This document shows, in pieces, positions 660 through 23,815 of a stretch of DNA of 64,000 nt (position 1 is its first letter; each line of letters begins with the position of its first letter). Below the pieces are notes generated by a model that worked only from the letters and a program-made list of their open reading frames with translations, was not told the origin of the DNA and did no database searches. The position numbers were made by a program, and so were the translations under genes. The DNA comes from Candidatus Latescibacterota bacterium (GTDB lineage: Bacteria; Latescibacterota; UBA2968; UBA8231), in assembly GCA_965217585.1 (NCBI GenBank), contig OZ244561.1, forward strand, positions 4,064,001-4,128,000. The letters run 5' to 3'.

Positions 660-1385
660 CTACCATCTGGCTTTTAGGTCTCCCCAACTAATGGGTGCCA
701 CGGCCGTGGGGCCGGGAACGCGGGTAAGCTCAAAGGTGTCGACAGAGCCGTCTGGATATGGAACGGAAAGATTGACGCTGTCGCTTGAGAAAGCAGCAGC
801 GATAGTCGATCCCCGTACAGGCGTACCGCCGAAGAGGGAAGTAATCTCTTCCACTAAATCGTCGGGAAGTTCGTCCGAGCCGAGTACCTCAGCAAAGAAA
901 TTGATAAAGAACTCGACAGCCTCAGTATCGCCCAAGTACAGGTCAACTTCGTTAAGATCCATCCGCAAGCTGCTGCCCTCGGTGCTATAGGTACCCATCC
1001 AAGCAAAAGTCATCGAATACCCATGCGGACTTGCAAGTGCATCAATAGCTCGCTGACGCCAAGTACCTAAGTCGATAGTCGAATCCACTGCGGTGGCGAC
1101 GTCCCACAAGCGAGTTTCGTCTGGTGCGAAGAACAATCCCGAGATGAATTCGGCGTCGTCGAAGCGCATCTTAATGTCAAATTGGCAAGAGTTATCTTCT
1201 GCAAAGATTGCCCGGACGATAGTTTCGCCCTCTAGCGTTTCGCGGAGGAAGGTGCCGTCTTCTTCGACGCTAGCCAACTCGACTCCTTCCTCAGTACCTT
1301 CCCAGGTACCCAGCAGGCCGTCCTGGCCAGCGGCGGGCAAAGCCCACAGGATTAGGACGTAAAAAAAAGAAAGGCTGCGTTGCAT
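660..1385 (-). CDS. Secreted acidic hypothetical protein with C-terminal TAVAPISWGDLKARW motif
   Basis: 241-aa ORF with SD (AAGGAGGAG), signal peptide ending ALPAAG and an acidic body. Confidence 0.75.
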   Translation of the reverse strand: MQRSLSFFYVLILWALPAAGQDGLLGTWEGTEEGVELASVEEDGTFLRETLEGETIVRAIFAEDNSCQFDIKMRFDDAEFISGLFFAPDETRLWDVATAVDSTIDLGTWRQRAIDALASPHGYSMTFAWMGTYSTEGSSLRMDLNEVDLYLGDTEAVEFFINFFAEVLGSDELPDDLVEEITSLFGGTPVRGSTIAAAFSSDSVNLSVPYPDGSVDTFELTRVPGPTAVAPISWGDLKARW

Positions 1386-1480: not shown

Positions 1481-1957
1481 TCAGCGGCGGCGATAAGTCG
1501 CAAATATCAGCTCGCCTTCGCTGCGCTTTTCCACCACCTCCCATTCGCCTTCTTCCCACGTCGGAAAATACGCGTCGCCCTCGACTTCGATGGGCAAGTG
1601 CGTCAGAATCATTTCGTCGGCCAAGGGCAGAGCCTGCTCATAGACTTGGGCACCCCCGAGCACGAAGAGTTTTTCGCTGCCGTGGGCGCGGGCGCGCTGC
1701 AAAACCTCGGCCAAGCTCGCGCAGACAACCACGCCCTTGGCAACCTCGTAAGCCGGATTGCGGGTGAGGACGAAGTTGCGACGCTGGGGCAAGGGGCGCG
1801 TCTGAAAGGTCTCGTAGGTTTTGCGACCAGCCACGACCGCGTGGCCCCGAGTGACGCGGCGGAAGTGCTTCATGTCGGCCGGATAGTGCCACGGGATGGC
1901 GTTGTCGCGGCCAATGACCCTGTTCTCGCTCAGGGCGGCGATGATGATGGTTTTCAT
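1481..1957 (-). CDS. folA: Dihydrofolate reductase
   Basis: IIAALSENRVIG, IPWHYPADMKHF, GRKTYE, RPLPQRRNFVLT, LGGAQVY, EGDAYFP. Confidence 0.95.
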   Translation of the reverse strand: MKTIIIAALSENRVIGRDNAIPWHYPADMKHFRRVTRGHAVVAGRKTYETFQTRPLPQRRNFVLTRNPAYEVAKGVVVCASLAEVLQRARAHGSEKLFVLGGAQVYEQALPLADEMILTHLPIEVEGDAYFPTWEEGEWEVVEKRSEGELIFATYRRR

Positions 1958-2700
1958 TCGGACAAATCGGACGGATGAAAGAAAGAGCGGACGACCGGGC
2001 GCTCCGAGTGCTTGGCCTCGGCGACCGTGCCGGTGAATGCCACTTGGCCTTGGTCCAGCATGATGAGACGGCCATCGAGTCGCTCGATGCTAAGTAACTC
2101 GTGGGTGATAATGGCGATGGTGATGCCCAATTCGCGGTTGAGCGTGAGGAGCAGCGCGTCGATTTCGGCGGCGGTGACCGGGTCAAGGCCCGCGCCCGGC
2201 TCGTCGCAGAAGAGAATCTCCGGGTCCATGACCATGGCCCGCGCGAGAGCGGCGCGTTTGCGCATCCCGCCCGATAGCTCGCCTGGATAGCGGTCGCAGG
2301 CGTGCCCCAAGCCCACCGAAGCGAGGCGGGTGCGGGCGATATCCCCAATCAGAGCTGGCTCTAGGGCCGCGTGCATTTCCAAGGGCAGGGCGACGTTTTG
2401 CTCAATCGTCAACGAGTTGAGCAGCGCGCCGTATTGGAACATCACGCCCAGCCGCTTGCGCAGGGCCGCCAACTCCTCCTCGCCGAGGGCCGTCGCGTCT
2501 TGGCCGAGGATTTCAACGCGGCCCGAGGCGGGTTGCACCAAGCCGATAATCGCCTTGAGCAAGGTGCTCTTGCCGCAGCCGCTACCGCCGAGCACGACGG
2601 CGATTTCCCCCTCGTCCACATGCGCATCAATCCCGCGCAGGACGACCGTCTCGCCGTAGGACACGCAGAGATTTTGGATATCGATGGCGCGAGTCACCAT
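1954..2700 (-). CDS. MlaF/Ttg2A-like ABC transporter ATPase
   Basis: Walker A GGSGCGKS, MFQYGALLNSL, signature LSGGMRKR, DEPGAGLDP. Start reassigned to the ATG at 2700 (MVTRAIDI), overlapping the upstream permease. Confidence 0.9.
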   Translation of the reverse strand: MVTRAIDIQNLCVSYGETVVLRGIDAHVDEGEIAVVLGGSGCGKSTLLKAIIGLVQPASGRVEILGQDATALGEEELAALRKRLGVMFQYGALLNSLTIEQNVALPLEMHAALEPALIGDIARTRLASVGLGHACDRYPGELSGGMRKRAALARAMVMDPEILFCDEPGAGLDPVTAAEIDALLLTLNRELGITIAIITHELLSIERLDGRLIMLDQGQVAFTGTVAEAKHSERPVVRSFFHPSDLSE

Positions 2701-3788
2701 TTGAAATAAAAGACAATGCCCCAGAAGGCGTCGAGGACGATGATGCCAAACAGCGACGACACGACCGCCGAAGTCGTCGCTCGGCCGACGCCCTCGGCCC
2801 CGCCGCTGAAATTGAGGCCGTGGTAAACCGAGATGATCGTGATAAGCCACGCAAAGGACGCGCTTTTGACCAGCCCGGTGAGCAAATCCTTGAGAAAGAG
2901 TGCCGAGAAGACTTGGTTGAGAAACACAGTAGCTGGGATGTCCAGCGACACCATGCCAATGAAGGTGCCGCCGAGGATGCCAACGAAGTTGGCCATGATC
3001 GTCAAAAGCGGCATGCAGATGATCATCGCCCACAGCTTGGGCACGGCCACAAAGCGCAGCGGGTCGATTCCCATAGTCTGCAGGGCGTCCAATTCCTCGG
3101 TGAACTTCATGGTGGCGATCTCGGCGGCAATGGCCGACCCAGAGCGGCCAGACACCATGATCGCGGTCATCAGCGGCCCCAACTCGCGGGTCAGGCCAAT
3201 GCCCAGCAGGTTGGCGACGAAAATATCGGCCCCGAACTGGCGGAGCTGGGCCGCGGACTGCAGGGCCGAAACCGCGCCGACGAGAAAGAGAATCAGCCCG
3301 ACGATCTGCAGGGCCTGCGCGCCAATCGCGTACGCTTGCTCACCAAAGCTGCCCCGGCGAATCTGATCGCGGCGGAACAGGGATATCACCGAGAACACGC
3401 TCAGGTCGGCCATCAGATAGAGAAAATCGGCCGCGCGGACGCCACGAGCGTGGACCCAAGCGCCAAGGCGTTCAAGAGCGGCGGGGGGGGGCGCGGGGGG
3501 CGCGGGGGGCGGCGCGGGCGTGGCAAAGTCGAAAAAGGGCTGCAAGTGAGCGGGCAGCCCATCGAGGCGGAGTTCCTTGTCCAAGGAGCGGGCGAGGGCG
3601 GGCAAGCCGCGCAGGAAGACGGCTCCCGCAGTGTCGAGGTGTTCGACTTGGCGCAAGTCAGCGCGGAGCGCGGAGCGCGGGTGTTCGGAGATGAGTGCAC
3701 GGGCTTGGGGAGCGAGCGCGCCGATGGTGTGTAGCGAAAGCACGCCCCCGAGCGCGATTCCCTGTTCGTCGCTCCGCACCCAAGTCAT
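2694..3788 (-). CDS. MlaE-family permease with N-terminal STAS-like domain
   Basis: HLDTAGA STAS motif, Pro-rich linker, RELGPLMTAIMVSGRSGSAIAAEIATMK, EELDAL, GVGRATTSAVV. Confidence 0.92.
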   Translation of the reverse strand: MTWVRSDEQGIALGGVLSLHTIGALAPQARALISEHPRSALRADLRQVEHLDTAGAVFLRGLPALARSLDKELRLDGLPAHLQPFFDFATPAPPPAPPAPPPAALERLGAWVHARGVRAADFLYLMADLSVFSVISLFRRDQIRRGSFGEQAYAIGAQALQIVGLILFLVGAVSALQSAAQLRQFGADIFVANLLGIGLTRELGPLMTAIMVSGRSGSAIAAEIATMKFTEELDALQTMGIDPLRFVAVPKLWAMIICMPLLTIMANFVGILGGTFIGMVSLDIPATVFLNQVFSALFLKDLLTGLVKSASFAWLITIISVYHGLNFSGGAEGVGRATTSAVVSSLFGIIVLDAFWGIVFYFKW

Positions 3789-5293
3789 AGCAAATAGTTG
3801 AGGCGCAGCAGGACATGCTGCTCGGATTGCAGCCGCTGGACCGGCGGCTTACGCTCGAAGTCGAAGACGACGACCATGTTGACGAAGCGACTAAGCGGCA
3901 AGCGCAAGCGGTTTTCCCAAGTGAACTCCCAAGTGTCGGTGGCCGTCTTCGGGATAAGGAGGTCAAACTCCGAATCCAAGCTGGGGAAGCGCGAAAAACG
4001 CGACCGGAGGAGCAGCACGGCCTCCAAGCCGGTGGTGGCCGTGTCATGCAACTTGCGGGCAATAGTGCGGGAGGAGTTTAGGTCAAAGGTATCGGTAACA
4101 TAGCTTTGACGCGCCCCAAAACCAACGCGCATGTCGAGGTTCAGGGGAAAGCTACTGATGACCTGGGAGTTGATGCCGATGCCCTGGCGCAACACGAGGG
4201 GGCTGAAGGGCGGAGAGAGGGTAAATTCGCTAATGCCCGTCCTGCCTTCGATCTGGTCGCCGTCGCGGATCAGAAGGTTGCGCGGCTGGTCGAAGCGGTC
4301 CTCAGTGGCGAATAGCCTGGTGTTGAACACCCCGCGCAGATAGGGGCCGATCCGCTTGGAAAGCCGGTAGATATACGTAGCGCGGACCTCGAACTTGTCG
4401 TCGCTGGTCTTGCGGAAGTCGTCGCCCTCCTCACGGGTGAAGCCCTCTTCAAAGTCCAGCCGCAAATTGGCGTAGTGGCGGTCCGTGTTATAGACACTGC
4501 TGCCGATGACTTCAGCGGAAAGCGAGAGGACCGAGCGATCTGCGCCGATGGTATTCTGCGAGGTGGACAGCCGAGGCGAGCCGCTTAGCTGCAAGGAGGT
4601 CTTCCAGCGCGAGTCAGTTACTTGGGCGAGGAGGCCATATTGAGCCGGGGGGTAGAAGCCGATGAAGGTATCGTCGCTGGTGTCTACTACTAGATTGCGC
4701 TGGACCAACTCGCCTGGCTCTAAGCGGACGCTGAACTTGCGGGTGGTTGATACGTTGTCGCCGACTCCCACTACTGAGTAAACGCCTGGGGGCAGGAGCC
4801 ACGTTTTGACCGCCTCGCCTCGCTCCTCCTCGATACCGAAGCCGAGGCCGTAGTTTTCCTGCGAGGACTCCCGATATAGTTCATAGGATTCGTTGATCGA
4901 TGCGCGGTTCTCGGACATGACGTTGATGACTAGTCCGGCCCAGAAGGGCTTTATCAGGGTCGTCATGCCCTCTTGGATCGGCACGGTGCGGCTCATCATC
5001 TGGAGGTCCGAGCCCGAGCCGACCAGTAATTTGTAGCTGCCGGGCGCGAGCAACTCGCCAGTGCCGGGGGAGGCTTCGCGGATGGGTTTGTTCCCCTGTA
5101 AGACGAGGAAACTGGGCTCGTTGAGGGAGCCGGACATCGTCGGCACGAAGAGAAAGCCCTTGCCCTTGGGAATCAGCGTTGGATCCTGTTCGAGTTGGCC
5201 GCGCTCGGGTGGGGCGATCCACGTATAGCTGTTGCCCGCGGCGGGACCGACAAGCAACGGCAGGGCGATCAGGATGTAGAGTAGCTTGTACAT
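3785..5293 (-). CDS. Secreted protein, probable outer-membrane beta-barrel with N-terminal beta-sandwich domains
   Basis: Start reassigned to the ATG at 5293 (MYKLLYILIALPLLVGPAAG signal peptide). The C-terminal half has alternating amphipathic strands and ends VLLRLNYLL. It sits inside the MCE operon. Confidence 0.65.
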   Translation of the reverse strand: MYKLLYILIALPLLVGPAAGNSYTWIAPPERGQLEQDPTLIPKGKGFLFVPTMSGSLNEPSFLVLQGNKPIREASPGTGELLAPGSYKLLVGSGSDLQMMSRTVPIQEGMTTLIKPFWAGLVINVMSENRASINESYELYRESSQENYGLGFGIEEERGEAVKTWLLPPGVYSVVGVGDNVSTTRKFSVRLEPGELVQRNLVVDTSDDTFIGFYPPAQYGLLAQVTDSRWKTSLQLSGSPRLSTSQNTIGADRSVLSLSAEVIGSSVYNTDRHYANLRLDFEEGFTREEGDDFRKTSDDKFEVRATYIYRLSKRIGPYLRGVFNTRLFATEDRFDQPRNLLIRDGDQIEGRTGISEFTLSPPFSPLVLRQGIGINSQVISSFPLNLDMRVGFGARQSYVTDTFDLNSSRTIARKLHDTATTGLEAVLLLRSRFSRFPSLDSEFDLLIPKTATDTWEFTWENRLRLPLSRFVNMVVVFDFERKPPVQRLQSEQHVLLRLNYLL

Positions 5294-5301
5294 GCCAAGT
5301 C

Positions 5302-6060
5302 CTAGGGGGCCAGCTTCCCCGGTATGAGTTCGTAGTGATCGGCTTCGGTTTGCAGCACCGTATCTCGGGCCGCTAGGGCGGTTTCCTCGTCGGGCGTGAC
5401 GAGCGCGGGTCGTTGCTTGTTGCGGAACTTGAAGTCGATCTCCTCGATCGCCTTTTGCATTTGTTTGCCCAAAATGTCGCTCAAAACGGCCACCGTGTAT
5501 CTCATGGCTGGGAAGAACACCTGTTCCTCCTCGTCGAAATCGGTCTGCCATATAACTTTGCCGTCGGCCTGTCTCACTAGTTCCATCGTCATAACGAGAT
5601 GGGCCGCCCACAGGTCGCCGCTGTCGAAGCGCTCAATGGCTTTGACCGAGCCGCTGAACACGTAATCCGGGCGGTGCTCAAAAAAATCGCGATCCCCGCC
5701 CACATAGGTAAAGAGGTCAGCTTGGCGCAAGTACTGCTTGACTGCATCGGTAATCATGCCGCTGGGGCGCTCCATCCAGTAGTGGAGGTTGTCGCGCTGC
5801 AGTTCGTACTGATCGCGGCGGCGGATGATGTTGGTGCGATCATACGCTCGGGGCACCTCAAAGCCTTTGACCTGCAAGCGGAAAGGGTACGGGCGCTCGG
5901 AACCTTCCACGCTACCGCGCAAGGGTTCGATATGCAACTTGAAATAGCGCCGTTGCGGCAACTTGGTGTCGCCGCCCAGCAACTGGGCGCAGCCAGATAG
6001 AGCTATGGCCAAGACGAAAGCCTGGCTGCAGCGGCGCGCTCGGCTATTCGGTCGCACCAC
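5302..6060 (-). CDS. PqiC-like ABC-transport auxiliary lipoprotein
   Basis: Likely GTG start near 6060. Lipobox LSGC, YDRTNIIRR, HYWMERPSGMI, GSVKAIE. Follows the MCE gene. Confidence 0.8.
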   Translation of the reverse strand: MVRPNSRARRCSQAFVLAIALSGCAQLLGGDTKLPQRRYFKLHIEPLRGSVEGSERPYPFRLQVKGFEVPRAYDRTNIIRRRDQYELQRDNLHYWMERPSGMITDAVKQYLRQADLFTYVGGDRDFFEHRPDYVFSGSVKAIERFDSGDLWAAHLVMTMELVRQADGKVIWQTDFDEEEQVFFPAMRYTVAVLSDILGKQMQKAIEEIDFKFRNKQRPALVTPDEETALAARDTVLQTEADHYELIPGKLAP

Positions 6061-7021
6061 TGCGACCTCGGATGAGCACCGCGGGATTCTCGCGGATGAG
6101 TTCAGTGGTTTCGCGGATATTCTGCAAAGTTTCCTCCAGTTCCTGTATGGCGCGCAGAAGATTCTGTCGGCTGGCCCCCACGGTTTGGTCGATGCCCACA
6201 AAGGTCTGGTCGATATGGCTTATCACGGTGTCCATCCGCGCGATGAGCAGGGGAACCGGGCCGTCCATTTGCTGGCGCAACTTGTGCATCGTCACTTGCA
6301 GGTCGTCAACCGTCTGTTGCAGCTTCGCGCCCACGAGCAAGGCGTGCAGGGAATCGACTGTCACCGCCAACGTCGCGCTGGCTTTGGCGAGCGAGCGACT
6401 GGTGGCAACCATATTGGCCGCGGTCTCGTCGAATGCGGAGCGGTTGTTCTCGACCAGCGCGTTGGCCGTGGCCAGCAGATTGCCCGCGTTGCTCAGCAGC
6501 TCGGTGAAGACGCGCTGGTTTTCGCTGCTGAGCAGTGCGCTTAGGTTGTCGATGGTTTGTTCAACCTTGATGCTGAGCACTTCGGCGCGCTCTTGCATGC
6601 TGCTAAAAAAGGTCTCGTCCGCGACAATTGTGGACCCCGGAGGGAGGACTGGGGAGTCGTCACTGCCGCCGAAAAGCTCGATGAACTTCAGGCCGGTGAT
6701 CCCCAACGAGGCCATGCGCGCTTGCGTGTCGGTGCGGATGGCGTTTGCGGCCCGCCGCCTCTCGACCGAAATCTCGATTACCAAAGTAGAGAGATGATCC
6801 TGCGCGATCGCAATGTCCTCGACTCGGCCAATACTGAAACCCAAGTACTTGACATCCGCGCCTTTGTTGAGGCCGCTGACGGGCGAGTTGGACTCGATGT
6901 AATAGGTATCGCGCTGACGCAGGAGATGGCTGCCGGCGACGACGATGAAGAAAAGCGCGAGGACAGAGAGAGAAACTAAGAAGAAGATGCCCAGGCGTAT
7001 TTGCTGTGCTCGGGTAGCCAT
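6044..7021 (-). CDS. MlaD/MCE-domain protein with long helical C-terminus
   Basis: N-terminal TM helix, VSGLNKGADVKYLGFSIGRVEDI, SLGITGLKFIEL, coiled coil, C-terminal NPAVLIRG. Confidence 0.92.
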   Translation of the reverse strand: MATRAQQIRLGIFFLVSLSVLALFFIVVAGSHLLRQRDTYYIESNSPVSGLNKGADVKYLGFSIGRVEDIAIAQDHLSTLVIEISVERRRAANAIRTDTQARMASLGITGLKFIELFGGSDDSPVLPPGSTIVADETFFSSMQERAEVLSIKVEQTIDNLSALLSSENQRVFTELLSNAGNLLATANALVENNRSAFDETAANMVATSRSLAKASATLAVTVDSLHALLVGAKLQQTVDDLQVTMHKLRQQMDGPVPLLIARMDTVISHIDQTFVGIDQTVGASRQNLLRAIQELEETLQNIRETTELIRENPAVLIRGRSGATE

Positions 7022-7072
7022 AAAGACGCTGTGGAATAAGTCGTAATTGAAATGCCGCCCCTTGGGGCAATA

Positions 7073-7978
7073 TCAGCAACGCACCCCTTGCGAGCAAGAA
7101 CTCGGCACCACCACCCGCAGAGCCGCCGGGCTAATTTCCAGCACCAGTGGCGTCTGGTCTAGATAGTCGCCGTCCACATATACGCTGTGCGGCGCGTCAG
7201 TGTGCAGCGCTAGGCGGGCTGTGCGCTCGATGCGCACGGCTGGATGGCGGACATGTCCTTGCCAAAAGAGGCGGATCATCAGCGGTAGAATCGCCCACCG
7301 TGGCACCGCATTGACGACGACCACGTCGAAGAGGCCATCGCCGCAATCGGCATCTGGGGCAACGCACAAATTGCCTCCATAGTTCCGCGTATTAGCGGTA
7401 GATACTTGCAGCACCTCTTGCTCAATCTCCCCGAAATCGCCGCAGAGGCGGACCTGGGCCGGTTGGTAGCGAGCGACGTGCCGCAACGCTTCCAAGATAT
7501 AGCGGGCCCGCCCGGACAGAGGCCCTTGGGCGCTTTCCATGCGGCGATTGACTTCGGCGTCAAAGCCAAAGGCGGCGATTGTGGCGAAGAAGCGGTCGCC
7601 GGCCCGGCCCAAGTCTATGGTGCGCACCTCGCCGCGGAGCAGGTTGCCTATGGCCGCTTCCACTCGGAGCGGCACTTCGAGGGCGCGGGCCAAGTCGTTG
7701 CACGTGCCGCAGGGCAGCAGCCCCAAGGTCGTGTGCGAGCCGGCGAGGGGCGCGAGTGTCTCGTTGATGGTGCCATCGCCGCCGCAGACCACGAGCCGCT
7801 CAGCACCCTCGGCCACGGCCTGCTGCGCCAGCTCGGCTCCGTGGCCCTTGGCCCGCGTGTAGCGCAATTCGACCGCTTGACCGGCAGCTTGCATAGCCAA
7901 GGCGGCTTGCTCGGCGAAGCTGCGCGCGCGGGCGTTGCCCGCCGTTGGATTGGCTATCAAGACCCAGTGTTTGGACAT
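7073..7978 (-). CDS. Diacylglycerol/lipid kinase family protein (YegS/DagK)
   Basis: NPTAG, CGGDGTINE, LPCGTCNDLARAL, GFDAEV, NYGGN, DGLFDV, VDGD. Confidence 0.92.
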   Translation of the reverse strand: MSKHWVLIANPTAGNARARSFAEQAALAMQAAGQAVELRYTRAKGHGAELAQQAVAEGAERLVVCGGDGTINETLAPLAGSHTTLGLLPCGTCNDLARALEVPLRVEAAIGNLLRGEVRTIDLGRAGDRFFATIAAFGFDAEVNRRMESAQGPLSGRARYILEALRHVARYQPAQVRLCGDFGEIEQEVLQVSTANTRNYGGNLCVAPDADCGDGLFDVVVVNAVPRWAILPLMIRLFWQGHVRHPAVRIERTARLALHTDAPHSVYVDGDYLDQTPLVLEISPAALRVVVPSSCSQGVRC

Positions 7979-8042
7979 AGCTTGGGTTGTCCCGTCCCGT
8001 CCTGCGCATAGATTAACCTTGATAAAAAGATAACATCAAAAC

Positions 8043-8189
8043 ATGGCCAAGCGAAAACGAGACATCGAGTGGGCTGACCAGCGCCGCGAGCTGGAAAAAC
8101 AGGTCAAGCACCCCTATATCACCAAGCAAGGGCTAGACCGGAATCGGCGCGACGGCAAGGGTCGCGATCCTAAGCGTCCCGAGCAGTGA
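8043..8189 (+). CDS. Small highly charged protein, 48 aa
   Basis: Manual translation MAKRKRDIEWADQRRELEKQVKHPYITKQGLDRNRRDGKGRDPKRPEQ*. Below the ORF-track cutoff; GC-rich third positions; fills the intergenic gap. Confidence 0.55.
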   Translation: MAKRKRDIEWADQRRELEKQVKHPYITKQGLDRNRRDGKGRDPKRPEQ

Positions 8190-8195
8190 GCCTCC

Positions 8196-8224
8196 TTGTG
8201 GCGGGGCGTCCCGCCTTCTATATT
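8196..8224 (+). promoter_or_regulatory. Putative sigma70 promoter for the ElbD-like operon
   Basis: TTGTGG-N17-TATATT about 85 bp upstream of the ATG at 8309. Confidence 0.4.
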
Positions 8225-8308
8225 ACAGCGCTTCAAGCCCTGTCCTGACGGGCCTCTCGCGGCACGGGATGGGGCTTTTGTCCGTCTCCGCTATGATCCG
8301 TTTCCGCT

Positions 8309-11300
8309 ATGATCAGAGAATTCTATCAGGACCGCACCGTGTTGCTGACCGGCGGCACCGGGTTTTACGGGCAAGGGCTGACGGCCAAGATCCTGCGCTA
8401 TTTGCCCGCCGTGCGGCGCTTGTACCTCGTTTTGCGGCCCGGTCGGGGTCCTGATGGAGCCGCGCTGCCGGTAGAGGAGCGGCTGGACGAGCTTTTCAAG
8501 CTAGTCGTCTTCGACCGCTTTCGCCGCGAGGAGCCAGCCGCTTTTGCTGCGGCGCGACAGAAGGTGCGCGCCCTCGCCTGCGACATGCAGCAGCCGGGCC
8601 TCGGGCTAGACGAAGCATCGCGCGACGAGTTGCTCGCGGAAGTTGACCTCATCATCGGCAACGCGGCCAGCGTCACCTTCGACGAACCGCTCGACTCGGC
8701 GATCCAATTCAACACCTTGGCACCTCAGGAGCTTTTGCGGCTGGCCCGCGGAGGCCGCAAAAAGCCCGTCTTAGTACACGTATCAACCGCATACGTCAAC
8801 GGCCGCCTCGCCGGTGCCGTCCCCGAGCGAGTACTGCCGGTCGATCGCACGATTCAACACCTAATCGACGGCAGCACGCCTCCACAGCCTTTCGTCCCCG
8901 AAGAAGAGATCGCCCAAGCGCAAGCCCGCTGCCGTGCAATCCGTGCCCAAGCGCAAAGCGCCGAGCAACAGCAAGCATTCCGCCGCGAGATCGTCGAGCA
9001 GAGCCATAGCCGCAAGCTTTCTGACAGCCGCTTGCAAAAGCTGATTGACGACCGCTGTCGCCGCTGGATCGAGCGCGAGTTGGTCGAGGAAGGGATGCGC
9101 CGAGCGCGGCAGCATGGCTGGAATGACGTGTACACTTTTACCAAAGCCATGGGCGAACAGCTACTCGTCAAGCACCGCGACCAAGTGCCGCTGGCCATCG
9201 TGCGGCCCAGCGTCACCGAAGGCGCGCTCGAAGATCCACATCCAGGCTGGATCCACGGCCTCAAAGTAACCGATCCACTAATCGTGGCCTACGGGCGGGG
9301 GCTTGTCCCGGACTTCCCGGCCGCAGTCGGCGCGCCCATGGACTTGGTGCCCGTGGACATCGTCGTCAATACCGTGCTGGCCGCGGCCACGCAGGCCACG
9401 GCCTCCACAGTGGAGGTCTTCCACGCGGCAACCAGCGAAGAAAACCCGCTGCCCAACACCCGGATGTTCAAGTACGTAAAAGGCTACTTTGAGGAACACC
9501 CCCTCCTCAACAAAGACGGCTCGCGGCCCGAGCTAGTGGATTGGACCTTCCCGACGGTGACCCGCTTCCAGCGCGCCTTCAACTGGAAGTACCTCTATCC
9601 TCTGGAGATAAAGCAAAAGCTCTACGAGTACCTGCCCGAGCGCTGGGCACCGGCCCAGAAGAAACGCCGCTTGGCCGCACTCAAGACGCGACTCAAGCGC
9701 GTCCAGTACTTCACCGACCTGTTCAGCCCGTACACGACCCTCGATTGCCGCTATGAAACTAAGCGCATGTTGGCTCTCTACGAGTCGCTGTCCCCCGAAG
9801 AGCAGCGAATCTTCAACATGGACGTGCGGCGGATCGACTGGTATCAATACTATCAAAAGACCCACCTGCCCGGCCTGCGGCGTCACGAGCTAGGCGGGGC
9901 CGACGACGAGCAAGAGCCGTTGAGCGCGGCACCGGGCGAAGTGGGAGGCGAGGAACAGCGCTGGCGCATCGAGGAAAGCATCCGCACGATCCCGGACCTG
10001 TTGCGCTGGGCCTGCGGTCGCTACGCCGCCAGAACGGCCTTGCAAATCGAGCGCCGAGCCGGCTGGACGCGGATCAGCTACGACGAGTTGCTCGCCCGCG
10101 CCGAGCGCGTGGCGCGCAGTTGGCAAGCGCAGGGCGCGTCGGCCGGTGCGCGGGTCCTGCTGTGCGGGGACAACGGGCCGGAGTGGGTCGTCGCCTATAT
10201 GGCGGCCAGCCTGCTCGGGCTAGCGGTCGTGCCCATCGACCCGCAGACGCGCGAGGAAGACATCTGGAGGCTGTGCGACTTTGTCCAAGCGCGGGCACTG
10301 ATTGCGGCGGAAAAGCGCTTTTCTCAGCTCTCGCCCGAGGGCGTGGCAGCCCACAAGGAGATGGCCTTTTTCAATGTAGATCACGACGGTCTGCCGTTCG
10401 GGCACGCTCCCGAACCAGCCGCGGCCGCTGAAGAAGGCCGTTGGAAGCCACCACGGATCGGGCCAGACGCCACGGCGTCAATCATCTTTACCTCGGTCCT
10501 CGAGCCGCGCGGAGTGGTGTTGAGCCATCGCAACCTCATCTCCAATGTCCTCGCCCAAGGCGAGGTGCTGCGCATCTACGAATCCGACCGCATGCTCTCG
10601 ACCCTGCCCCTGCACCAAGTCCTCGAATTCACGGGCGGCTTGCTGCTGCCGCTGCTCAGCGGGGCCACCATCACGTATTTAGAGGCCGTCAACAGCCGCG
10701 AGATGCTCCGCGCCCTGCACGATACGGGTACGACCGTGCTGTTGACCGCGCCGCGCCTGTTGCGCGTCTTGGCCGACCGCGTCGAGCGCCTCGGGGCCGA
10801 GGCCACGGCTGCGCTAGTCGCTCTGAGGCGGGTCGTCAGCGTCGGCGCAACCCTGTCCGACGACCTCATCGGCGCTTACGAGCGTCTCGGCGCGGCGATT
10901 TGCCAAGGCTATGGCCTGAGCGAAGCGGCCTCGGTCGTGGCGGTCAACGAGCCTAAGCAGGGCAAAGCCCGGTCGGTGGGGCAGGTGCTGCCTGGGCAGC
11001 AAGTGCAGATCGCCGAGCCAGACGAGCGCGGCGTCGGCGAGGTGTTGGTGCGGGGTGCCAACGTCATGGAGGGGTACCTCTCCCAAGAAGAGCTGACCCA
11101 AGCGGTGTTGCGCGACGGGTGGCTACACACCGGCGATCTCGGCCGACTAGACCAAGAAGGCTATCTCTTCGTCGAGGGGCGGAGCAAAGACCTGATCGTC
11201 AACGGAGCTGGCCACAACGTCTATCCACGCGAAATCGAATCGCTCTACCACGGCTTGCCGCACGTGGCCGAGCTGAGCGTGGTCGGCGTGCCCTCGGCTC

Positions 11301-12505
11301 GCACCGGGGGTGAAGAAGTGCGCGGCGTGGCCGTACTCAACCGCGAGGCCGAGGAGGCCGAGGACCTGCGCGAGGCTATCCAAGCGCGCTCATACGAGAT
11401 TTCTCGCACCTTGCCCAGCCATCACCGGATCCAGCGCCTGCACTTTTGGACCCAACCGCTGCCGAGGCTGGACGACGGGGCCGTGGACCGCCGTGCCCTG
11501 TTGTCCGCAATCGAGCGCGAAGACTGCCCAGACACGGCCCTGCCGGAATGGGAGCGGGCGATCCAGCGCCAAATCGGCCTGCTCGCTGGTCTGAGCGCCG
11601 GAGAGGTAGCAGCTCATATAGACGCACCGCTCGACACCTTGTTGGATTCGCTGATGGCAGTGGAGTTCGCCGCGTGGATCGGCCAGCGGCTGGGGAACCA
11701 AGTCGATGGGCTTTGGTGCCCACAGGACACGCTCCGCAGCGTCTTGGCGCGGTTAGAGGCCCACTTGCGCGACGGGGTGGACTGGGAGGTGGAGCAGTCA
11801 CCCGCGTACTGGTCGGGCATCTTGCACGCCGAGCTGAGCGCCGAGCCAGAGAACGAGGCCGGCAAAAAGATGCTGCAAGAATTCCTGTGGGAGACCGGCG
11901 GCCCCTTGTTCCGCCGCTTTTTCGACCTCCGGGCTGGCGGCCTAGAGTACTTGCCGCAAGATCGGCCATACCTAATTGCCGCCAACCACGCCAGCCACCT
12001 CGACGGTGCTTGCGTGTACTCAGCCGTGCGCTCTCATGTAGATCACCTCAATATCTCAATGGACGAGCATCACCTTGCCGACTCCGAGTTGCGCTGGTTT
12101 TTGTACACCTTTGCCAACGCCGTCCCCTTCGACGGCCACGGCGATTTTGCCGCCGGCTTGGTGCGGGCGCGGCAATTGGTGGGGGTGCGCCGCCCGCTGC
12201 TGGTCTTTCCCGAAGGCACGCGCTCAGTCAACGATCAGCTACAGCCGTTTAAGGCGGGCGTGGGGCTTTTGGCCTACGAGCTGGACGCGCCCGTAGTGCC
12301 CCTGCACATTGCCGGCACCCGCGAAGCCCTGCCCAAGGGGACGCGCACACCATCGCGCCACCCTTTGCGCCTGCTCTTTGGCCCCCCCCTAGAAACGACC
12401 TCTTTCAAAGGGCGCGCCGAGGCGTTGAGCCCCTATGAGATCTACTACGAGATCGCCGCGGCACTTAAGCGACACATCGAGGCGCTGGGCCGCAAGAACA
12501 TTTAA
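8309..12505 (+). CDS. ElbD-like multidomain lipid enzyme: fatty acyl reductase (NAD_binding_4 + Sterile), AMP-binding domain, carrier domain, PlsC-type acyltransferase
   Basis: TGGTGFYG, HVSTAYV, YTFTKAMGE, DVRRIDW; QGYGLSE, WLHTGDLG, GRSKDLIV..NVYPREIE; LDSLMAVE carrier Ser; ANHASHLD and FPEGTRS. Confidence 0.88.
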   Translation: MIREFYQDRTVLLTGGTGFYGQGLTAKILRYLPAVRRLYLVLRPGRGPDGAALPVEERLDELFKLVVFDRFRREEPAAFAAARQKVRALACDMQQPGLGLDEASRDELLAEVDLIIGNAASVTFDEPLDSAIQFNTLAPQELLRLARGGRKKPVLVHVSTAYVNGRLAGAVPERVLPVDRTIQHLIDGSTPPQPFVPEEEIAQAQARCRAIRAQAQSAEQQQAFRREIVEQSHSRKLSDSRLQKLIDDRCRRWIERELVEEGMRRARQHGWNDVYTFTKAMGEQLLVKHRDQVPLAIVRPSVTEGALEDPHPGWIHGLKVTDPLIVAYGRGLVPDFPAAVGAPMDLVPVDIVVNTVLAAATQATASTVEVFHAATSEENPLPNTRMFKYVKGYFEEHPLLNKDGSRPELVDWTFPTVTRFQRAFNWKYLYPLEIKQKLYEYLPERWAPAQKKRRLAALKTRLKRVQYFTDLFSPYTTLDCRYETKRMLALYESLSPEEQRIFNMDVRRIDWYQYYQKTHLPGLRRHELGGADDEQEPLSAAPGEVGGEEQRWRIEESIRTIPDLLRWACGRYAARTALQIERRAGWTRISYDELLARAERVARSWQAQGASAGARVLLCGDNGPEWVVAYMAASLLGLAVVPIDPQTREEDIWRLCDFVQARALIAAEKRFSQLSPEGVAAHKEMAFFNVDHDGLPFGHAPEPAAAAEEGRWKPPRIGPDATASIIFTSVLEPRGVVLSHRNLISNVLAQGEVLRIYESDRMLSTLPLHQVLEFTGGLLLPLLSGATITYLEAVNSREMLRALHDTGTTVLLTAPRLLRVLADRVERLGAEATAALVALRRVVSVGATLSDDLIGAYERLGAAICQGYGLSEAASVVAVNEPKQGKARSVGQVLPGQQVQIAEPDERGVGEVLVRGANVMEGYLSQEELTQAVLRDGWLHTGDLGRLDQEGYLFVEGRSKDLIVNGAGHNVYPREIESLYHGLPHVAELSVVGVPSARTGGEEVRGVAVLNREAEEAEDLREAIQARSYEISRTLPSHHRIQRLHFWTQPLPRLDDGAVDRRALLSAIEREDCPDTALPEWERAIQRQIGLLAGLSAGEVAAHIDAPLDTLLDSLMAVEFAAWIGQRLGNQVDGLWCPQDTLRSVLARLEAHLRDGVDWEVEQSPAYWSGILHAELSAEPENEAGKKMLQEFLWETGGPLFRRFFDLRAGGLEYLPQDRPYLIAANHASHLDGACVYSAVRSHVDHLNISMDEHHLADSELRWFLYTFANAVPFDGHGDFAAGLVRARQLVGVRRPLLVFPEGTRSVNDQLQPFKAGVGLLAYELDAPVVPLHIAGTREALPKGTRTPSRHPLRLLFGPPLETTSFKGRAEALSPYEIYYEIAAALKRHIEALGRKNI

Positions 12506-12507
12506 TT

Positions 12508-13260
12508 ATGTATCCCTACCTATTCGAGATCGGCCCCATTACTATTAGCACGTTTGGCCTCATGGTAGCCCTCGGTTTCCTAGCGTCCCTGCGTGTGCTC
12601 AATCGCGAGTTCAAGCGCCAGGGGCTACACGAAGAGTTGGGATCGACGATTGTCACCACCTGCATGGTCGGCGGGATAGTCGGGGCCAAGCTCTACTTTG
12701 TGCTATTTGAAACCTCGCCTGAGACCTGGGACGAGGTGTTCGACCTGCTGTTTTCCGGCTACGGCTTGACTTGGTACGGGGGGTTTGTCCTTGCTGCCGC
12801 CGGCGTGCTTTGGCAAATTCGCCGACTCAGTGCGCCGCTGGGCCAAGTCGCCGACTCGTTGGGCATTGCCGCTGCCGTGGGCTACGGGATCGGGCGGATC
12901 GGCTGCCAGCTCGCCGGCGATGGCGACTACGGGGTGCCGACTGATCTTCCCTGGGGCATGGCCTATCCCAACGGAGTGGTGCCGACCCTTGAAAAGGTCC
13001 ATCCCGCGCCAGTGTACGAAACTCTCGCCCACCTGGGGATCGCTGTCTTCCTGTGGAAGACGCGGACCCGCTTCGCGACCCCAGGTCTGTCGTTCAGCTT
13101 CTATCTCATCCTCGCCGGGCTAGCGCGGTTCTTGGTGGAGTTCATTCGGATCAACCCGCGCGTGCTGTGGGGCCTGAGCCAAGCCCAGCTCCTCAGCATC
13201 GCCATGATCGCCTTCGGCTTGGGGCTGATGCTGTATCTGCAACGCCGGGAGGCCTCCTGA
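12508..13260 (+). CDS. lgt: Prolipoprotein diacylglyceryl transferase family protein (divergent paralog type)
   Basis: [56 protein letters not shown]. Confidence 0.85.
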
Positions 13261-14729
13261 TGGCCAAGACGCGCTATCCGCGCATCTCCAGCTTTAAGCG
13301 GGCAGCGGACTTCCGCGCCCATCTGGCCCATTTGGGTGCGGAATTGCCCTGCGATGACCAGATCGAAACCGCTCCCACTTCCCCGCTGGCCCAACCAGCC
13401 CACAGCGGCGGCAACCGCATCGGCAACCGCTTTGCCATTCAGCCGATGGAAGGGTGGGACGGGACTGAGGACGGTCAGCCGAGCGATTTGACGCGCCGCC
13501 GCTGGCGGAATTTCGGGCGCAGCGAGGCCAAGCTCATCTGGGGTGGCGAGGCGTTTGCCGTAGTGCCCGAGGGCCGCGCCAACCCGAACCAGCTTATGGC
13601 ACGCGAGGAAAATCGCACCGGCATGGCCGAGCTGCGCGACATCCTCCTGTCGGCGCACCACGAGCGGTTCGGCACCACCGACGACCTGCTCCTCGGCCTG
13701 CAACTGACGCATTCGGGGCGATTCTGCCGGCCCTGGCGTAAAGACCAATCCGCGCCAGCCATTCTCTATCACCACCCGATCCTGGATCGCAAATTCGGCC
13801 TTGACGCGGACTATCCGCTCCTGACGGACGCCTATATCGAGGAGCTGATCGACCGCTATGTTGCCGGCGCGCAAATCGCCCACGAGTTGGGCTACCACTT
13901 CGTGGACATCAAGCATTGCCACGGCTATCTAGGGCACGAATTCCTCAGCGCGTTCACGCGGCCCGGTCCTTTTGGCGGCTCCTTTGCCAATCGCACGCGC
14001 TTTGTCCGCTCCATCATCGAGGGGATCCGCACCCAAGCACCCGGCCTCGGCATTGGCGTGCGGCTGAGTGCCTTCGACTTGGTGCCCTTCCGGCCCGATC
14101 CAGACGCGAGTACCGACGGCAAGCCGGGGCATGGAGTGCCCGAACCGTACCAAAACTGCCTGCCCTACGAGTACGGCTTTGGAGTCGATCAGGGCGACCC
14201 GCGGCAAATGGACTTAGGCGAGGCCGAGCAGTTCATCGCCTTGTTGGAGAGCTTGGGCGTGGAGCTGATCAACTTGTCCTGCGGCAGCCCTTATTACAAT
14301 CCGCATATCCAGCGACCGGCGCTCTTTCCCCCTTCCGATGGGTACCTGCCGCCGGAAGACCCGCTGTGCGGGGTGGCGCGGCAAGTGGCGATGGTCGCCC
14401 AGCTCAAAGCGCGCTTCCCGCGCAGTCTGTTCGTCGGGTCGGGATATTCCTACTTGCAGGAATATCTGCCACACGTGGGGCAAGCCCTCGTGCGGGCGGG
14501 CATGGTGGATTTCATTGGTTTGGGGCGGATGGTTCTGTCCTATCCCGACCTGCCCTGCGACGTGCTGCAAACGGGCCAACTGCAACGCCGCGTCATCTGC
14601 CGCACGTTTTCCGATTGCACGACCGCGCCGCGCAACGGCATGATTTCGGGCTGCTTTCCCCTCGACTCGTTTTACAAGCAGCGCGAGGAAGCCCAGCGCT
14701 TGCAGGCACTCAAAAAGGGAGCGGAATAA
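13260..14729 (+). CDS. NADH:flavin oxidoreductase (Old Yellow Enzyme family)
   Basis: Start ATG at 13260 overlaps the lgt stop (TGATG). [45 protein letters not shown]. Confidence 0.9.
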
Positions 14730-15460
14730 TGCGGCAATTCGTCGATAAAGTTGTTGTTGTAACCGGCGCGGGCACTGGGATCGGCGCGGCCATAGCACGC
14801 GGTTTTGCTGACGCAGGGGCGCGGGTGGCGTTCGTCGGGCGACGTCCTGAACCGCTCGCCGCTGCGGCCGCTGGCCTCAATGCCGCCCGGATTCTGCTCC
14901 ACGCCTGCGACGTATCCGACCGCTGCGCTGTCGCTGACCTAGCGTCCGCTGTCGAGGCCGAGTGGGGTGTCGTCGATGTGCTAGTCAACAACGCCGGCAT
15001 CAACACCAATCCGCGCGCAGTCGGTGACGTGGCACCCGAGGACTGGGACCAGACCATTGCCATCAATCTCACTGGGGTGTACAACATGATGCGGGTGGTG
15101 TTGCCGGGGATGCGGCAACAAAACGACGGCCTCATCATCACGATTTCGTCCATCGCCGGCCTGCGGGCCAGCAAGCTGGCCGGTGCCGCGTACTCGGCCT
15201 CCAAGCACGGGGCGGTAGCTCTGACAAACTCTATCAACGAGGAGGAAGTCGAGTTCGGCATCCGCGCCTGCGCGATTTGTCCCGGCGAGGTGGAGACGCC
15301 GATTTTGGCCCAGCGGCCCGAACCCGTCAGCGCCGAACGCCGGGCCGCCATGCTGCAACCCGAAGAACTGGCCCAAGCCGCGCTCTTCGTCGCCTCGCTG
15401 CCGCCCCGCGCCTGCGTGCCCCTCTTGGTGATCAAGCCGACGGTGCAACTATTTCAGTAG
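14729..15460 (+). CDS. Short-chain dehydrogenase/reductase
   Basis: Start ATG at 14729 (TAATG overlap). TGAGTGIG, NNAG, YSASK, ICPGEVETP. Confidence 0.9.
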   Translation: MRQFVDKVVVVTGAGTGIGAAIARGFADAGARVAFVGRRPEPLAAAAAGLNAARILLHACDVSDRCAVADLASAVEAEWGVVDVLVNNAGINTNPRAVGDVAPEDWDQTIAINLTGVYNMMRVVLPGMRQQNDGLIITISSIAGLRASKLAGAAYSASKHGAVALTNSINEEEVEFGIRACAICPGEVETPILAQRPEPVSAERRAAMLQPEELAQAALFVASLPPRACVPLLVIKPTVQLFQ

Positions 15461-15518: not shown

Positions 15519-15770
15519 ATGACAACGCGGAAAATCGTGATTGATATTCCAGAGAACGTACTGCTGGCCGCGAAGACCGACGAACGCGCTTTTGCACGTG
15601 AACTCCGCATGCTGGCCGCGGTCAAGCTCTACGAGCTTGGCCGTCTTTCGTCTGGCCGGGCTGCGGAGCTCGCCGGGATGGAGCGCGTGGAATTTCTATT
15701 GACGCTTGACCGCTACAAGGTCTTTCCACTTGAGACGGAGTTGAATGACCTAGAACGCGAGCATGTCTGA
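15519..15770 (+). CDS. UPF0175 family protein (putative antitoxin)
   Basis: AVKLYELGRLSSGRAAELAGMERVEFL HTH motif. Confidence 0.85.
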   Translation: MTTRKIVIDIPENVLLAAKTDERAFARELRMLAAVKLYELGRLSSGRAAELAGMERVEFLLTLDRYKVFPLETELNDLEREHV

Positions 15771-15812: not shown

Positions 15813-15858
15813 TCCATCGTCATGCGTCTTTCGTGGAATGAAATAATTGGAGAATACC

Positions 15859-23306: not shown

Positions 23307-23342
23307 GAGGTATTGCTCCGGTTTGAGGTGTCGCGTTCCCAG

Positions 23343-23375
23343 GCTTCATTAACAATCCCAAGCTTCATTAACAAT
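23343..23375. promoter_or_regulatory. 14-bp direct repeat in a divergent intergenic region
   Basis: GCTTCATTAACAAT at 23343-23356 and 23362-23375. Confidence 0.45.
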
Positions 23376-23386
23376 AACAATACAAT

Positions 23387-23815
23387 ATGGATTGGCATCC
23401 CTTCATCGTCCACTACCCTATCGCGCTCTTGTCGCTGAGTCCGCTGTGCGATCTAGGCGCACTGTGGCTAGGTCGCCGCGCCGGGCACCACCTAGCGTAC
23501 GGCTTGCTGGTGTTGGGCGTACTAGCGGCGACAGCCGCCGTGCTCAGCGGCAACGCGGCCGCGACCAATGCTTGGGAGGGACCGGCCGCCGCGCCGTTAG
23601 CCACGCACGAATCCCTCGCTACTTGGACCTTGCTGTTGGGATTGGGGACCGTTCTCGGGCGCTTGCCTTTGCACCTCAAGGGGCGGCTTGCAGGATGGCC
23701 GCTCTATGCGTGGATCGCCCTCGGCGTCCTGATCGGCGGCTTGGTCTTGTGGACGGGCTACTGCGGCAGCGAATTGGTCTATGTACACGGCTTGGGCGTG
23801 CGGGCCGATGGCTGA
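23387..23815 (+). CDS. DUF2231-like membrane protein
   Basis: WHPFIVHYPIALL, 4 TM helices, conserved His, TGYCGSELVYVHGLG. Confidence 0.8.
   Translation: MDWHPFIVHYPIALLSLSPLCDLGALWLGRRAGHHLAYGLLVLGVLAATAAVLSGNAAATNAWEGPAAAPLATHESLATWTLLLGLGTVLGRLPLHLKGRLAGWPLYAWIALGVLIGGLVLWTGYCGSELVYVHGLGVRADG

Follow-up and report, generated by a model that had tools for sequence, protein, structure and literature searches.

The locus discussed here occupies positions 1481-15460 of a 64,000-nucleotide stretch (the window) of the genome of an uncultured sponge-associated bacterium of the Candidatus Latescibacterota, which is available as a single contig of 7.32 Mb (G000 in our numbering). It consists of two divergent gene arms. 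The plus arm encodes an ElbD-like enzyme that starts with a fatty acyl reductase (FAR) part, the lipoprotein-anchoring enzyme Lgt, a flavin oxidoreductase of the old yellow enzyme (OYE) family and a short-chain dehydrogenase/reductase (SDR); the minus arm encodes a lipid kinase, an MCE/Mla-type transporter and dihydrofolate reductase. On the basis of gene content, motifs, copy numbers, phylogeny and synteny, the locus is probably a composite of three units, namely an ether-lipid unit, the single MCE/Mla transporter of the cell, and the sole Lgt together with the OYE and SDR proteins. The initial annotation had read both arms as one pathway. Of that reading, the ElbD architecture, the capacity for ether-lipid synthesis, the link with the kinase and the conservation of the block throughout the bacterial family stand, whereas a dedicated Lgt and a linkage of lgt, OYE and MCE genes beyond that family do not. 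The comparison of genomes lends no support to a pathway dedicated to ether-anchored lipoproteins, although ether anchors may well be produced by a cell that has ether phospholipids together with a single remodelled Lgt.

We infer the enzymatic steps and substrates of this composite as follows. The adenylation domain of the ElbD-like protein would activate a fatty acid and load it onto the carrier serine of the same polypeptide, the N-terminal reductase would convert the thioester to a fatty aldehyde or alcohol, and the C-terminal acyltransferase would acylate a glycerol-phosphate or dihydroxyacetone phosphate (DHAP) acceptor. A distant AGPS-SDR gene pair is expected to form and then reduce alkyl-DHAP, and the divergent YegS-type kinase may re-phosphorylate diradylglycerols or alkylglycerols. 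The MCE/Mla transporter, with its PqiC-like lipoprotein and barrel protein, could move glycerolipids between both membranes. Lgt, OYE and SDR, here taken as a separate unit, appear to be packed in the ElbD transcription unit, and Lgt would lipidate all lipobox proteins from whatever phosphatidylglycerol pool exists.

Ether-lipid capacity, AGPS and the lipid kinase

Genes were called from a listing of open reading frames (ORFs) and from profile searches (Pfam, NCBIfam) of the locus proteins. The ElbD-like protein (8309-12505, plus strand; 1398 aa) has the Pfam layout NAD_binding_4 (residues 13-355), Sterile (458-526), AMP-binding (566-924), AMP-binding_C (975-1052) and Acyltransferase (1210-1334), and its carrier region is recognized by the invariant D1113/S1114. 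In an alignment of 19 homologues with identities down to 34%, the residues T14/G15/G18/F19, Y275/K279, D1113/S1114, N1226/H1227..D1232 and P1301/E1302/G1303 are invariant or nearly so; we take these sites to be the Rossmann, YxxxK, DSL (carrier), HX4D and PEGTR motifs. With the motifs of all four domains intact, the earlier proposal of an ElbD domain order within one polypeptide is confirmed. ElbD of Myxococcus xanthus is described as a FAR1-like reductase followed by an acyl-CoA-synthetase-like domain, an acyl carrier protein (ACP) and an AGPAT-like acyltransferase, with a role in ether lipids and with acyl-CoA synthetase and ACP domains that are active in vitro (PMC9131029). The window protein is likened to it by this described order, which is the same, and by homologues in metagenome-assembled genomes (MAGs), where full-length tblastn matches were found in three Myxococcales/Polyangiaceae loci (L007, L010 and L014; 28-30% identity, E 8e-137 to 1e-151). 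Full-length relatives also occur in acidobacterial MAGs. The surroundings differ, since the elbA-E cluster of M. xanthus (MIBiG BGC0000871) has elbB (HAD) and elbA/elbE (NAD epimerase) as neighbours, whereas the window has lgt, OYE, SDR, kinase and MCE genes instead. As had been noted initially, the block contains no HAD or epimerase-type gene: the ten neighbours lack a HAD match, and the Epimerase score of the SDR (20.1) stays below the cut-off (20.9).

A second component of ether-lipid synthesis, which the initial annotation had overlooked, is located 725 kb from the window. It is an AGPS orthologue (E 3.6e-149 to guinea-pig AGPS, PDB 4bby, residues 37-601) with an SDR gene directly after it (L141 8001-10635, corresponding to G000:C1:4800533-4803167). 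This arrangement of AGPS followed by an SDR is shared with the AGPS-type aerobic pathway, as found in the peroxisomal set FAR1/GNPAT/AGPS/alkyl-DHAP reductase and in M. xanthus MXAN_1676-1674. Since the ElbD motifs are intact and the AGPS-SDR pair is present in the same genome, the parts of the classical aerobic route are present, and the ether-lipid capacity that had been proposed for this organism is well supported by its gene content. It represents a clear genomic case of an uncultured lineage with both an ElbD-type enzyme and an AGPS-type ether-lipid route. A search for CarF/PEDS1 (PF10520) gave no match, but its control was silent in every genome, so that the result is no evidence of absence.

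For the distribution of these genes, 167 other genomes of the phylum were counted; G000, which itself carries FAR/ElbD, AGPS and OYE, was left out. We designate the family of the window f1 and its sister families f2, f3 and f4, and number genera (g), genomes (G) and loci (L) in the same way. FAR/ElbD was found in 72 of the 75 f1 genomes, all three of f2, 20 of the 22 of f3 and 30 of the 31 of f4, and is rare in other families. The numbers for AGPS are 71/75, 1/3, 22/22 and 29/31, against 1/36 in other families. In genomes of f2, f3, f4 and f14 the two genes lie only about 2 kb apart. Compared with the FAR-X-AGPS-SDR clusters of the sister families, FAR has left the AGPS cluster in f1, and in G000 it is fused to the adenylation, carrier and acyltransferase (A-ACP-AT) part. 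An example of such a cluster is present in the f4 genome G080 (L124 2226-10590), where FAR is accompanied by a 645-aa protein X, AGPS, an SDR, a GH3 enzyme and a YegS kinase. Protein X is conserved and was recognized by neither Pfam nor NCBIfam profiles; G000 encodes an orthologue with 47% identity at 2399969-2401870. We regard X as a candidate ether-lipid gene.

The close association of FAR with AGPS also bears on the possibility that the alcohols produced by the reductase go into wax esters or other neutral lipids and not into membrane ether lipids. Six f1 genera have lost the A-ACP-AT part and keep FAR only, and the FAR family is described as serving wax-ester synthesis too (PMC11948995). 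However, the two genes co-occur in f1-f4 and lie within about 2 kb of each other in f2, f3, f4 and f14 genomes, so that we consider this explanation improbable. AGPS is retained in the six FAR-only genera. A mirror image is provided by genus g15, in which four of five genomes have a full-length ElbD and the fifth a C-terminal fragment, while an AGPS match (E <= 1e-80, 47% identical) was found in one of the five. FAR-only genera with AGPS, next to a genus with ElbD mostly without AGPS, fit two alternative routes as described for M. xanthus.

The occurrence of standalone elbD and agps in sponge-associated Latescibacterota MAGs is reported in a recent preprint, as is the adjacency of diacylglycerol (DAG) kinase genes to elbD in some other clades (Loureiro et al. 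2026; 10.64898/2026.06.23.733905). The main text of that work on elb-like cluster families of sponge symbionts never mentions lgt, diacylglyceryl, old yellow, MCE or Gemmatimonad, and its supplementary tables may list the present locus. Among database proteins, the closest ones were labelled Gemmatimonadetes by their submitters, and more distant ones Latescibacterota.

Of all links suggested by the locus, the one between the kinase and the ElbD-like enzyme has the best comparative support. The kinase (7073-7978, minus strand) is a soluble protein of the YegS/BmrU/DgkB type with DAGK_cat (PF00781, 109.3 bits) and YegS_C (PF19279, 115 bits) domains, and its TIGR00147 score of 161.9 exceeds the curated cut-off of 118.65. 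Distant loci, 80 of which were listed, came from a scan with generic AMP-binding patterns and include no close relatives; the latter were found by separate searches, genome by genome. A YegS-type kinase gene is present near ElbD/FAR in three of the 11 full-length distant ElbD loci (L002, L003 and L006; Acidobacteriota, Phycisphaerae and Pyrinomonadaceae) and near one FAR-acyltransferase locus from Dehalococcoidia (L012). Within the phylum, it is found near FAR in G080, G037 and G031, which belong to families f2, f4 and f13. This recurrence in other families and phyla supports the kinase link that had been proposed, and makes it a credible functional one: the YegS-type kinase appears to be a recurrent partner of ElbD/FAR enzymes. 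In f1 itself the kinase gene is absent from the block in five genera (g2, g5, g10, g11 and g16).

A single, divergent Lgt

Lgt (12508-13260, plus strand) is 250 aa long, as compared to 291 aa for Lgt of Escherichia coli, and gives the single PF01790 match in the whole genome (162.6 bits, aligned over profile positions 1-240 of 240). A check for a second, canonical lgt, which the initial annotation had recommended, yielded none, and the dedicated or specialised Lgt that it had envisaged is not borne out; a sole housekeeping copy was among the outcomes that it had itself named as speaking against this idea. The pathway partners of Lgt are present in G000, with one match for Lsp and two for Lnt_N, and the locus itself encodes a lipobox protein. 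Since the sole lgt is accompanied by Lsp and Lnt, the window Lgt is, judged by copy number and partners, the housekeeping lipoprotein-anchoring enzyme of the cell.

The enzyme is nevertheless a divergent, short-head subtype. Its structural model (predicted local distance difference test, pLDDT, 88.7) has E. coli Lgt (5azb) as its unique fold match, with a template-modelling (TM) score of 0.82, whereas the scores for the curated equivalogs stay under the cut-offs (TIGR00544, 90.8 versus 118.9; NF000778, 121.7 versus 334). Besides the fold, the two proteins share D129, R143, H196, Y201, E202, R239, E243 and R246 (E. coli numbering). Changes are found at Y26 (F), H103 (Y), N146 (C), E151 (D) and Y235 (A), and E. 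coli G154 aligns to Y141 of the window Lgt, with G142 adjacent. Residues described as absolutely required in the E. coli enzyme are Y26, H103, R143, N146, G154 and R239 (PMC13251419), of which only R143 and R239 are kept. The E. coli variants Y26F and H103Y and most Y235 variants are described as inactive, and Y26 forms a hydrogen bond with the sn-2 ester oxygen of phosphatidylglycerol (PMC4728403). H103Y/W/F, N146C and E151C/D, on the other hand, are reported as natural variation in distant Lgts (PMC13251419). The head-domain segment comprises about 47 residues in E. coli Lgt (E151-P197; PMC4728403) and about 28 in the window Lgt, a difference of about 20, and the signature motif, which is GRLGNFINGELWG in E. 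coli Lgt, is replaced by a different 14-residue version. A naturally occurring Lgt that is the sole copy and carries substitutions that inactivate the E. coli enzyme is a useful case for studying the donor specificity of Lgt.

Three clades are seen when 38 Lgt sequences of the phylum are placed in a tree, namely a canonical N-type, a Cys-type (RxGCFLNGCCYG) and the type of the window, the latter being sister to the Cys-type. The window-type clade comprises all block-linked copies of f1 and the sole lgt of the f4 genera g27, g28 and g31, in which lgt and FAR are separated by about 300 kb. By this tree, the clade is vertically inherited. Since it occurs in f4 without linkage to FAR, the variant features of this Lgt predate the linkage or are independent of it, except for the phenylalanine at position 26. 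Among f3 and f4 there are also genera with ether-lipid capacity that use the canonical N-type Lgt.

A second, canonical N-type lgt occurs in some genomes of four genera (L112-L116; genomes G137, G142, G105, G107 and G164). In L112 it is located at 3965-4777, among CobW/COG0523 genes and genes for a DUF3299 protein and an ABC ATPase. The DNA of the segment that contains the second lgt, about 4.8 kb long, has 91-97% identity in different genera, although the ElbD proteins of these genera share only 45-57%; the segment thus has the appearance of an island that was exchanged recently. Given its metal-chaperone neighbours, this second lgt could conceivably serve as a backup for a Cys-bearing resident Lgt.

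Gene order within the family and beyond

The close packing of the plus arm was described correctly in the initial annotation, and the eleven genes of the locus, their order, the 2-bp gap and both overlaps are all reproduced by the ORF list, the profiles and inspection of the junctions. The ElbD and lgt genes are separated by two base pairs (TAA-tt-ATG), and lgt/OYE and OYE/SDR overlap by one base pair of stop and start codons (TGATG and TAATG, respectively), from which we infer co-transcription. Contigs from RNA libraries (four runs, each from a different study) together cover most of the locus, and two junctions are bridged, lgt/OYE in runs X1 and X12 and OYE/SDR in X1. The ElbD/lgt junction is not among the pieces listed. 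Since such contigs give no transcript, strand or level and DNA carry-over is possible, they are compatible with transcription of the locus but prove neither transcription nor a single transcript. A scan for promoters and terminators was uninformative, with one promoter-like site against 2.7 expected and 13 terminator-like sites against 12.8 expected; a stem of 12 pairs is present at 15618-15644, 3' of the SDR gene.

The arrangement is well conserved in f1. In a synteny set of 20 loci from 17 genera, lgt directly follows FAR/ElbD in 18 loci (15 of the 17 genera), and OYE follows lgt in 17. The MCE arm is positioned head-to-head with ElbD in 15 of the 16 loci that have enough upstream sequence, the exception being genus g15, where the two do not adjoin. 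When the 73 f1 genomes that have a FAR match were tallied by hand, FAR-lgt adjacency was seen in at least 54 and was absent in two, while 17 could not be judged, for example due to contig ends. An SDR gene in this place is restricted to genera g1 and g12.

Outside f1 the picture is different. In the 80 distant loci listed, no gene for Lgt, OYE or an MCE protein was found within reach of FAR; as a positive control, the same lgt query detects N-type lgt at 76.6 bits. In families f2, f3, f4 and f8, FAR, lgt and OYE are far apart, and adjacency was found in none of the loci of sister families. Furthermore, the f1 flanks beyond the block are syntenic too, with an aminotransferase gene next to folA and genes for a PALP enzyme, IlvD, an amidohydrolase and a DUF2231 protein beyond OYE. 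Because unrelated housekeeping flanks are conserved as well, adjacency alone shows no function. The comparison indicates that f1 keeps this chromosomal neighbourhood and that the link with lgt is largely inherited gene order. The synteny that the initial annotation had suggested to examine is thus present for the divergent block across f1, but the adjacency of lgt, OYE, MCE and FAR genes is absent outside this family and unrelated flanks are equally conserved. The locus may serve as a cautionary example of how family-wide synteny can mimic a functional gene cluster. We also considered that the block might have sharp boundaries, marked by the gene for a 241-aa protein and an ankyrin gene without matches in relatives; this was rejected, since the flanks are syntenic across genera and the window carries insertions.

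Genus g16 is represented by two genomes (G154, containing locus L087, and G155; 86% and 90% complete). They keep ElbD, the MCE arm and AGPS but give no OYE match, and their only lgt scores as canonical and is located on other contigs. A joint loss of OYE and the window-type lgt seems to have taken place in this genus.

These observations allow the one-pathway explanation to be weighed. According to it, alkylglycerol lipids are synthesized or taken up, phosphorylated and carried across the envelope by the products of the locus, among which a specialised Lgt attaches alkyl-acyl-glyceryl anchors to lipoproteins. It derives support from the tight packing of ElbD, lgt, OYE and SDR and the adjacency in 18 of the 20 f1 loci, from the f1-specific substitution of a residue that contacts phosphatidylglycerol, and from the ether-lipid capacity itself, because with a single Lgt any alkyl-acyl-phosphatidylglycerol in the membrane is a potential donor. 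Against it stand the presence of a sole lgt with no dedicated paralogue, the occurrence of the same Lgt clade unlinked to FAR in f4 and the use of an N-type Lgt by ether-lipid-capable f3 and f4 genera, the restriction of the adjacency to a family in which unrelated genes are syntenic as well, and the combination of ElbD and AGPS in g16 without a window-type lgt or OYE. Furthermore, N146C, E151D and H103Y belong to the natural variation of Lgt cited above. We therefore consider this explanation unlikely. The same holds for its core, that f1 bacteria use their single remodelled Lgt (with F at the Y26 position, a short head, an altered signature and predicted co-transcription with the reductase) for making alkyl-acyl-glyceryl anchors, which we regard as doubtful. 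In the literature searched, no report of bacterial ether-linked Lgt anchors was found, and the papers that join both topics include work on archaeal lipoproteins and on N-acetylation in Bacillus. If the link were functional, bacterial ether-lipid synthesis would be joined to lipoprotein anchoring; the ether anchors would resist lipases and could alter recognition by host innate receptors, which is relevant to a sponge symbiont.

Three observations weigh against the composite of three units. First, every one of the 18 f1 Lgt sequences has phenylalanine in place of Y26, where the 20 sequences from outside f1 all have tyrosine, and the donor site of Lgt may have been readjusted in just that lineage in which FAR came to lie next to lgt. 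Second, the order FAR-lgt-OYE is kept in 18 of the 20 f1 loci with ElbD identity down to about 45%, and a small ORF precedes FAR in 17; the retained adjacency could reflect selection for a real functional link. Third, the A-ACP-AT part is missing in six genera, so that the ElbD-specific part of the model is not family-wide.

The constancy of FAR, lgt and OYE, which form the invariant core of the f1 plus arm while A-ACP-AT, SDR and kinase vary, also brings to mind a new ether-bond route. In this route, a fatty alcohol would replace or complement the cysteine thiol as acceptor, and Lgt would transfer the diacylglyceryl group of phosphatidylglycerol to the hydroxyl of this alcohol to give alkyl-diacylglycerol. 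Lgt chemistry is described as making a (thio)ether at glycerol C3 (PMC4728403), and g15 combines ElbD-lgt-OYE with an AGPS match in only one of its five genomes. Such a reaction has no known precedent, the only Lgt of the cell is also needed for the lipidation of lipoproteins, no other family has the three genes linked, and OYE orthologues occur irrespective of context; this makes the proposal very improbable.

The OYE-family protein (13260-14729, plus strand; 489 aa) matches PF00724 with 66.1 bits (cut-off 27) over profile positions 4-231 of 342, and only with its residues 45-275, so that the C-terminal 200 residues lie outside the assigned part. Its closest PDB relatives are OYEs of the YqjM/chromate-reductase type, aligned over the same part. 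One match at E <= 1e-60 was found in 125 of the 131 f1-f4 genomes, in addition to G000, the match being split in two pieces in one fragmented genome. Orthologues that are 55-59% identical occur in two Acidobacteriota genomes (G171:C14:228857-230311 and G168:C23:27764-29203), where they are unlinked to ElbD, and look-alike clusters are present in Planctomycetota and Bacteroidota. The protein is, on these matches, a class-wide flavoenzyme and a member of an uncharacterised family conserved between phyla. A functional link suggested by the concentration of FAR, OYE and AGPS in f1-f4 was rejected, because the concentration amounts to a single pattern at the level of the clade and other phyla have OYE orthologues too. 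The SDR that completes the plus arm (14729-15460) is a classical, FabG-like enzyme (PF00106, 187.3 bits).

The transporter arm and neighbouring features

The minus arm carries a set of Mla/MCE components, namely an MlaE permease, an ABC ATPase, an MCE-domain protein and a STAS (MlaB-like) domain, and the only MlaD match and the only MlaE match of G000 are both in this operon. The MlaD/MCE protein (6044-7021) has one MCE domain (PF02470, 45.2 bits against a cut-off of 25.1) and a long helical C-terminal part. It is followed by a PqiC-like ABC_trans_aux lipoprotein (5302-6060; PF03886, 36.5 bits) with the lipobox LSGC, for which GTG start candidates are present at 6060 and 6057 and the codon of the lipobox Cys starts at 5991 on the minus strand. 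Next come a 502-aa exported protein (3785-5293) and the permease (2694-3788), the latter a fusion of an MlaB-like STAS domain (PF13466, 31.5 bits, cut-off 29.2) with MlaE (PF02405, 253.5 bits; TIGR00056, 229.9 versus a cut-off of 212.2). The MlaF-like ABC ATPase (~1954-2700; PF00005, 109.7 bits) scores 160.6 bits with the MlaF equivalog NF008809, under its cut-off of 441; its start is uncertain, and the ATG at 2700 was chosen, which overlaps the end of the permease gene. The last gene of the arm is folA for dihydrofolate reductase (1481-1957; PF00186, 169.7 bits), which is kept here in most f1 loci.

The exported protein had been called a barrel in the initial annotation. Its Pfam match is borderline (DUF3078-like; PF11276, 25.8 bits versus a cut-off of 25), but an AlphaFold model built with 16 orthologues (mean pLDDT 69.9) has a signal helix, a beta-sandwich and long antiparallel strands, and all matches listed in a Foldseek search with this model are outer-membrane beta-barrels (145 with E <= 0.001; TM-scores low, 0.2-0.5). 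Model and matches support an N-terminal beta-sandwich followed by a C-terminal outer-membrane beta-barrel. A search in five genomes of other families gave no match, but it lacked a positive control and no conclusion follows. In comparison with the Mla (MlaFEDB) and PqiABC systems, the window shares the MlaF-like ATPase, the MlaE permease with fused MlaB-like STAS domain, the MCE protein and the PqiC-like lipoprotein; it differs by having one MCE domain with a long helical tail and a dedicated DUF3078-like barrel inside the operon.

Actinobacterial MCE systems import lipids. It is conceivable that the minus arm is a scavenging unit and not an outward transport or asymmetry system: the MCE transporter would import glycerolipids of the sponge host, such as alkylglycerols, the YegS kinase would phosphorylate them and the acyltransferase of ElbD would re-acylate them. 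The position of the kinase and the MCE operon on one strand, head-to-head with ElbD, and the fact that this is the only MCE system of the genome agree with this possibility, as do near-identical contigs in run X2, labelled as a sponge metagenome, of which the pieces have 0 differences from the window. The kinase is, however, missing from the block in the five genera listed above, the MCE arm of g15 is not beside ElbD, and f4 clusters combine a kinase with FAR-AGPS without MCE genes. Salvage of host lipids by this unit thus seems rather unlikely, and the composite in which the transporter is a unit of its own is preferred.

A small ORF (8043-8189, plus strand; 48 aa) that the initial annotation had overlooked is located between the two arms. 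It is hydrophilic, gives no Pfam match and is conserved upstream of ElbD on the same strand, at a distance of 100-400 bp from the reductase gene. Its motif, with the invariant core HPYITxQGL, is present in 17 f1 loci, a single time in each and a short distance upstream of FAR, whereas the other loci scanned all lack it. The ORF could encode a leader peptide or a small protein that regulates the plus arm.

Some further genes border the block. Between the aminotransferase gene and folA, the window encodes a 241-aa protein (660-1385, minus strand) with a signal-peptide-like N-terminus and without a Pfam match, for which no tblastn match of at least 50 bits was found in the 20 related loci examined. 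On the other side, two genes are inserted between the SDR gene and the amidohydrolase and DUF2231 genes (22014-23812), encoding an ankyrin-repeat protein (15847-17367, plus strand) and a 1225-aa protein with a SIR2-like domain (17635-21312, minus strand). In other genera, the amidohydrolase and DUF2231 genes are no farther than about 1-6 kb from the end of the block at which OYE/SDR is located.

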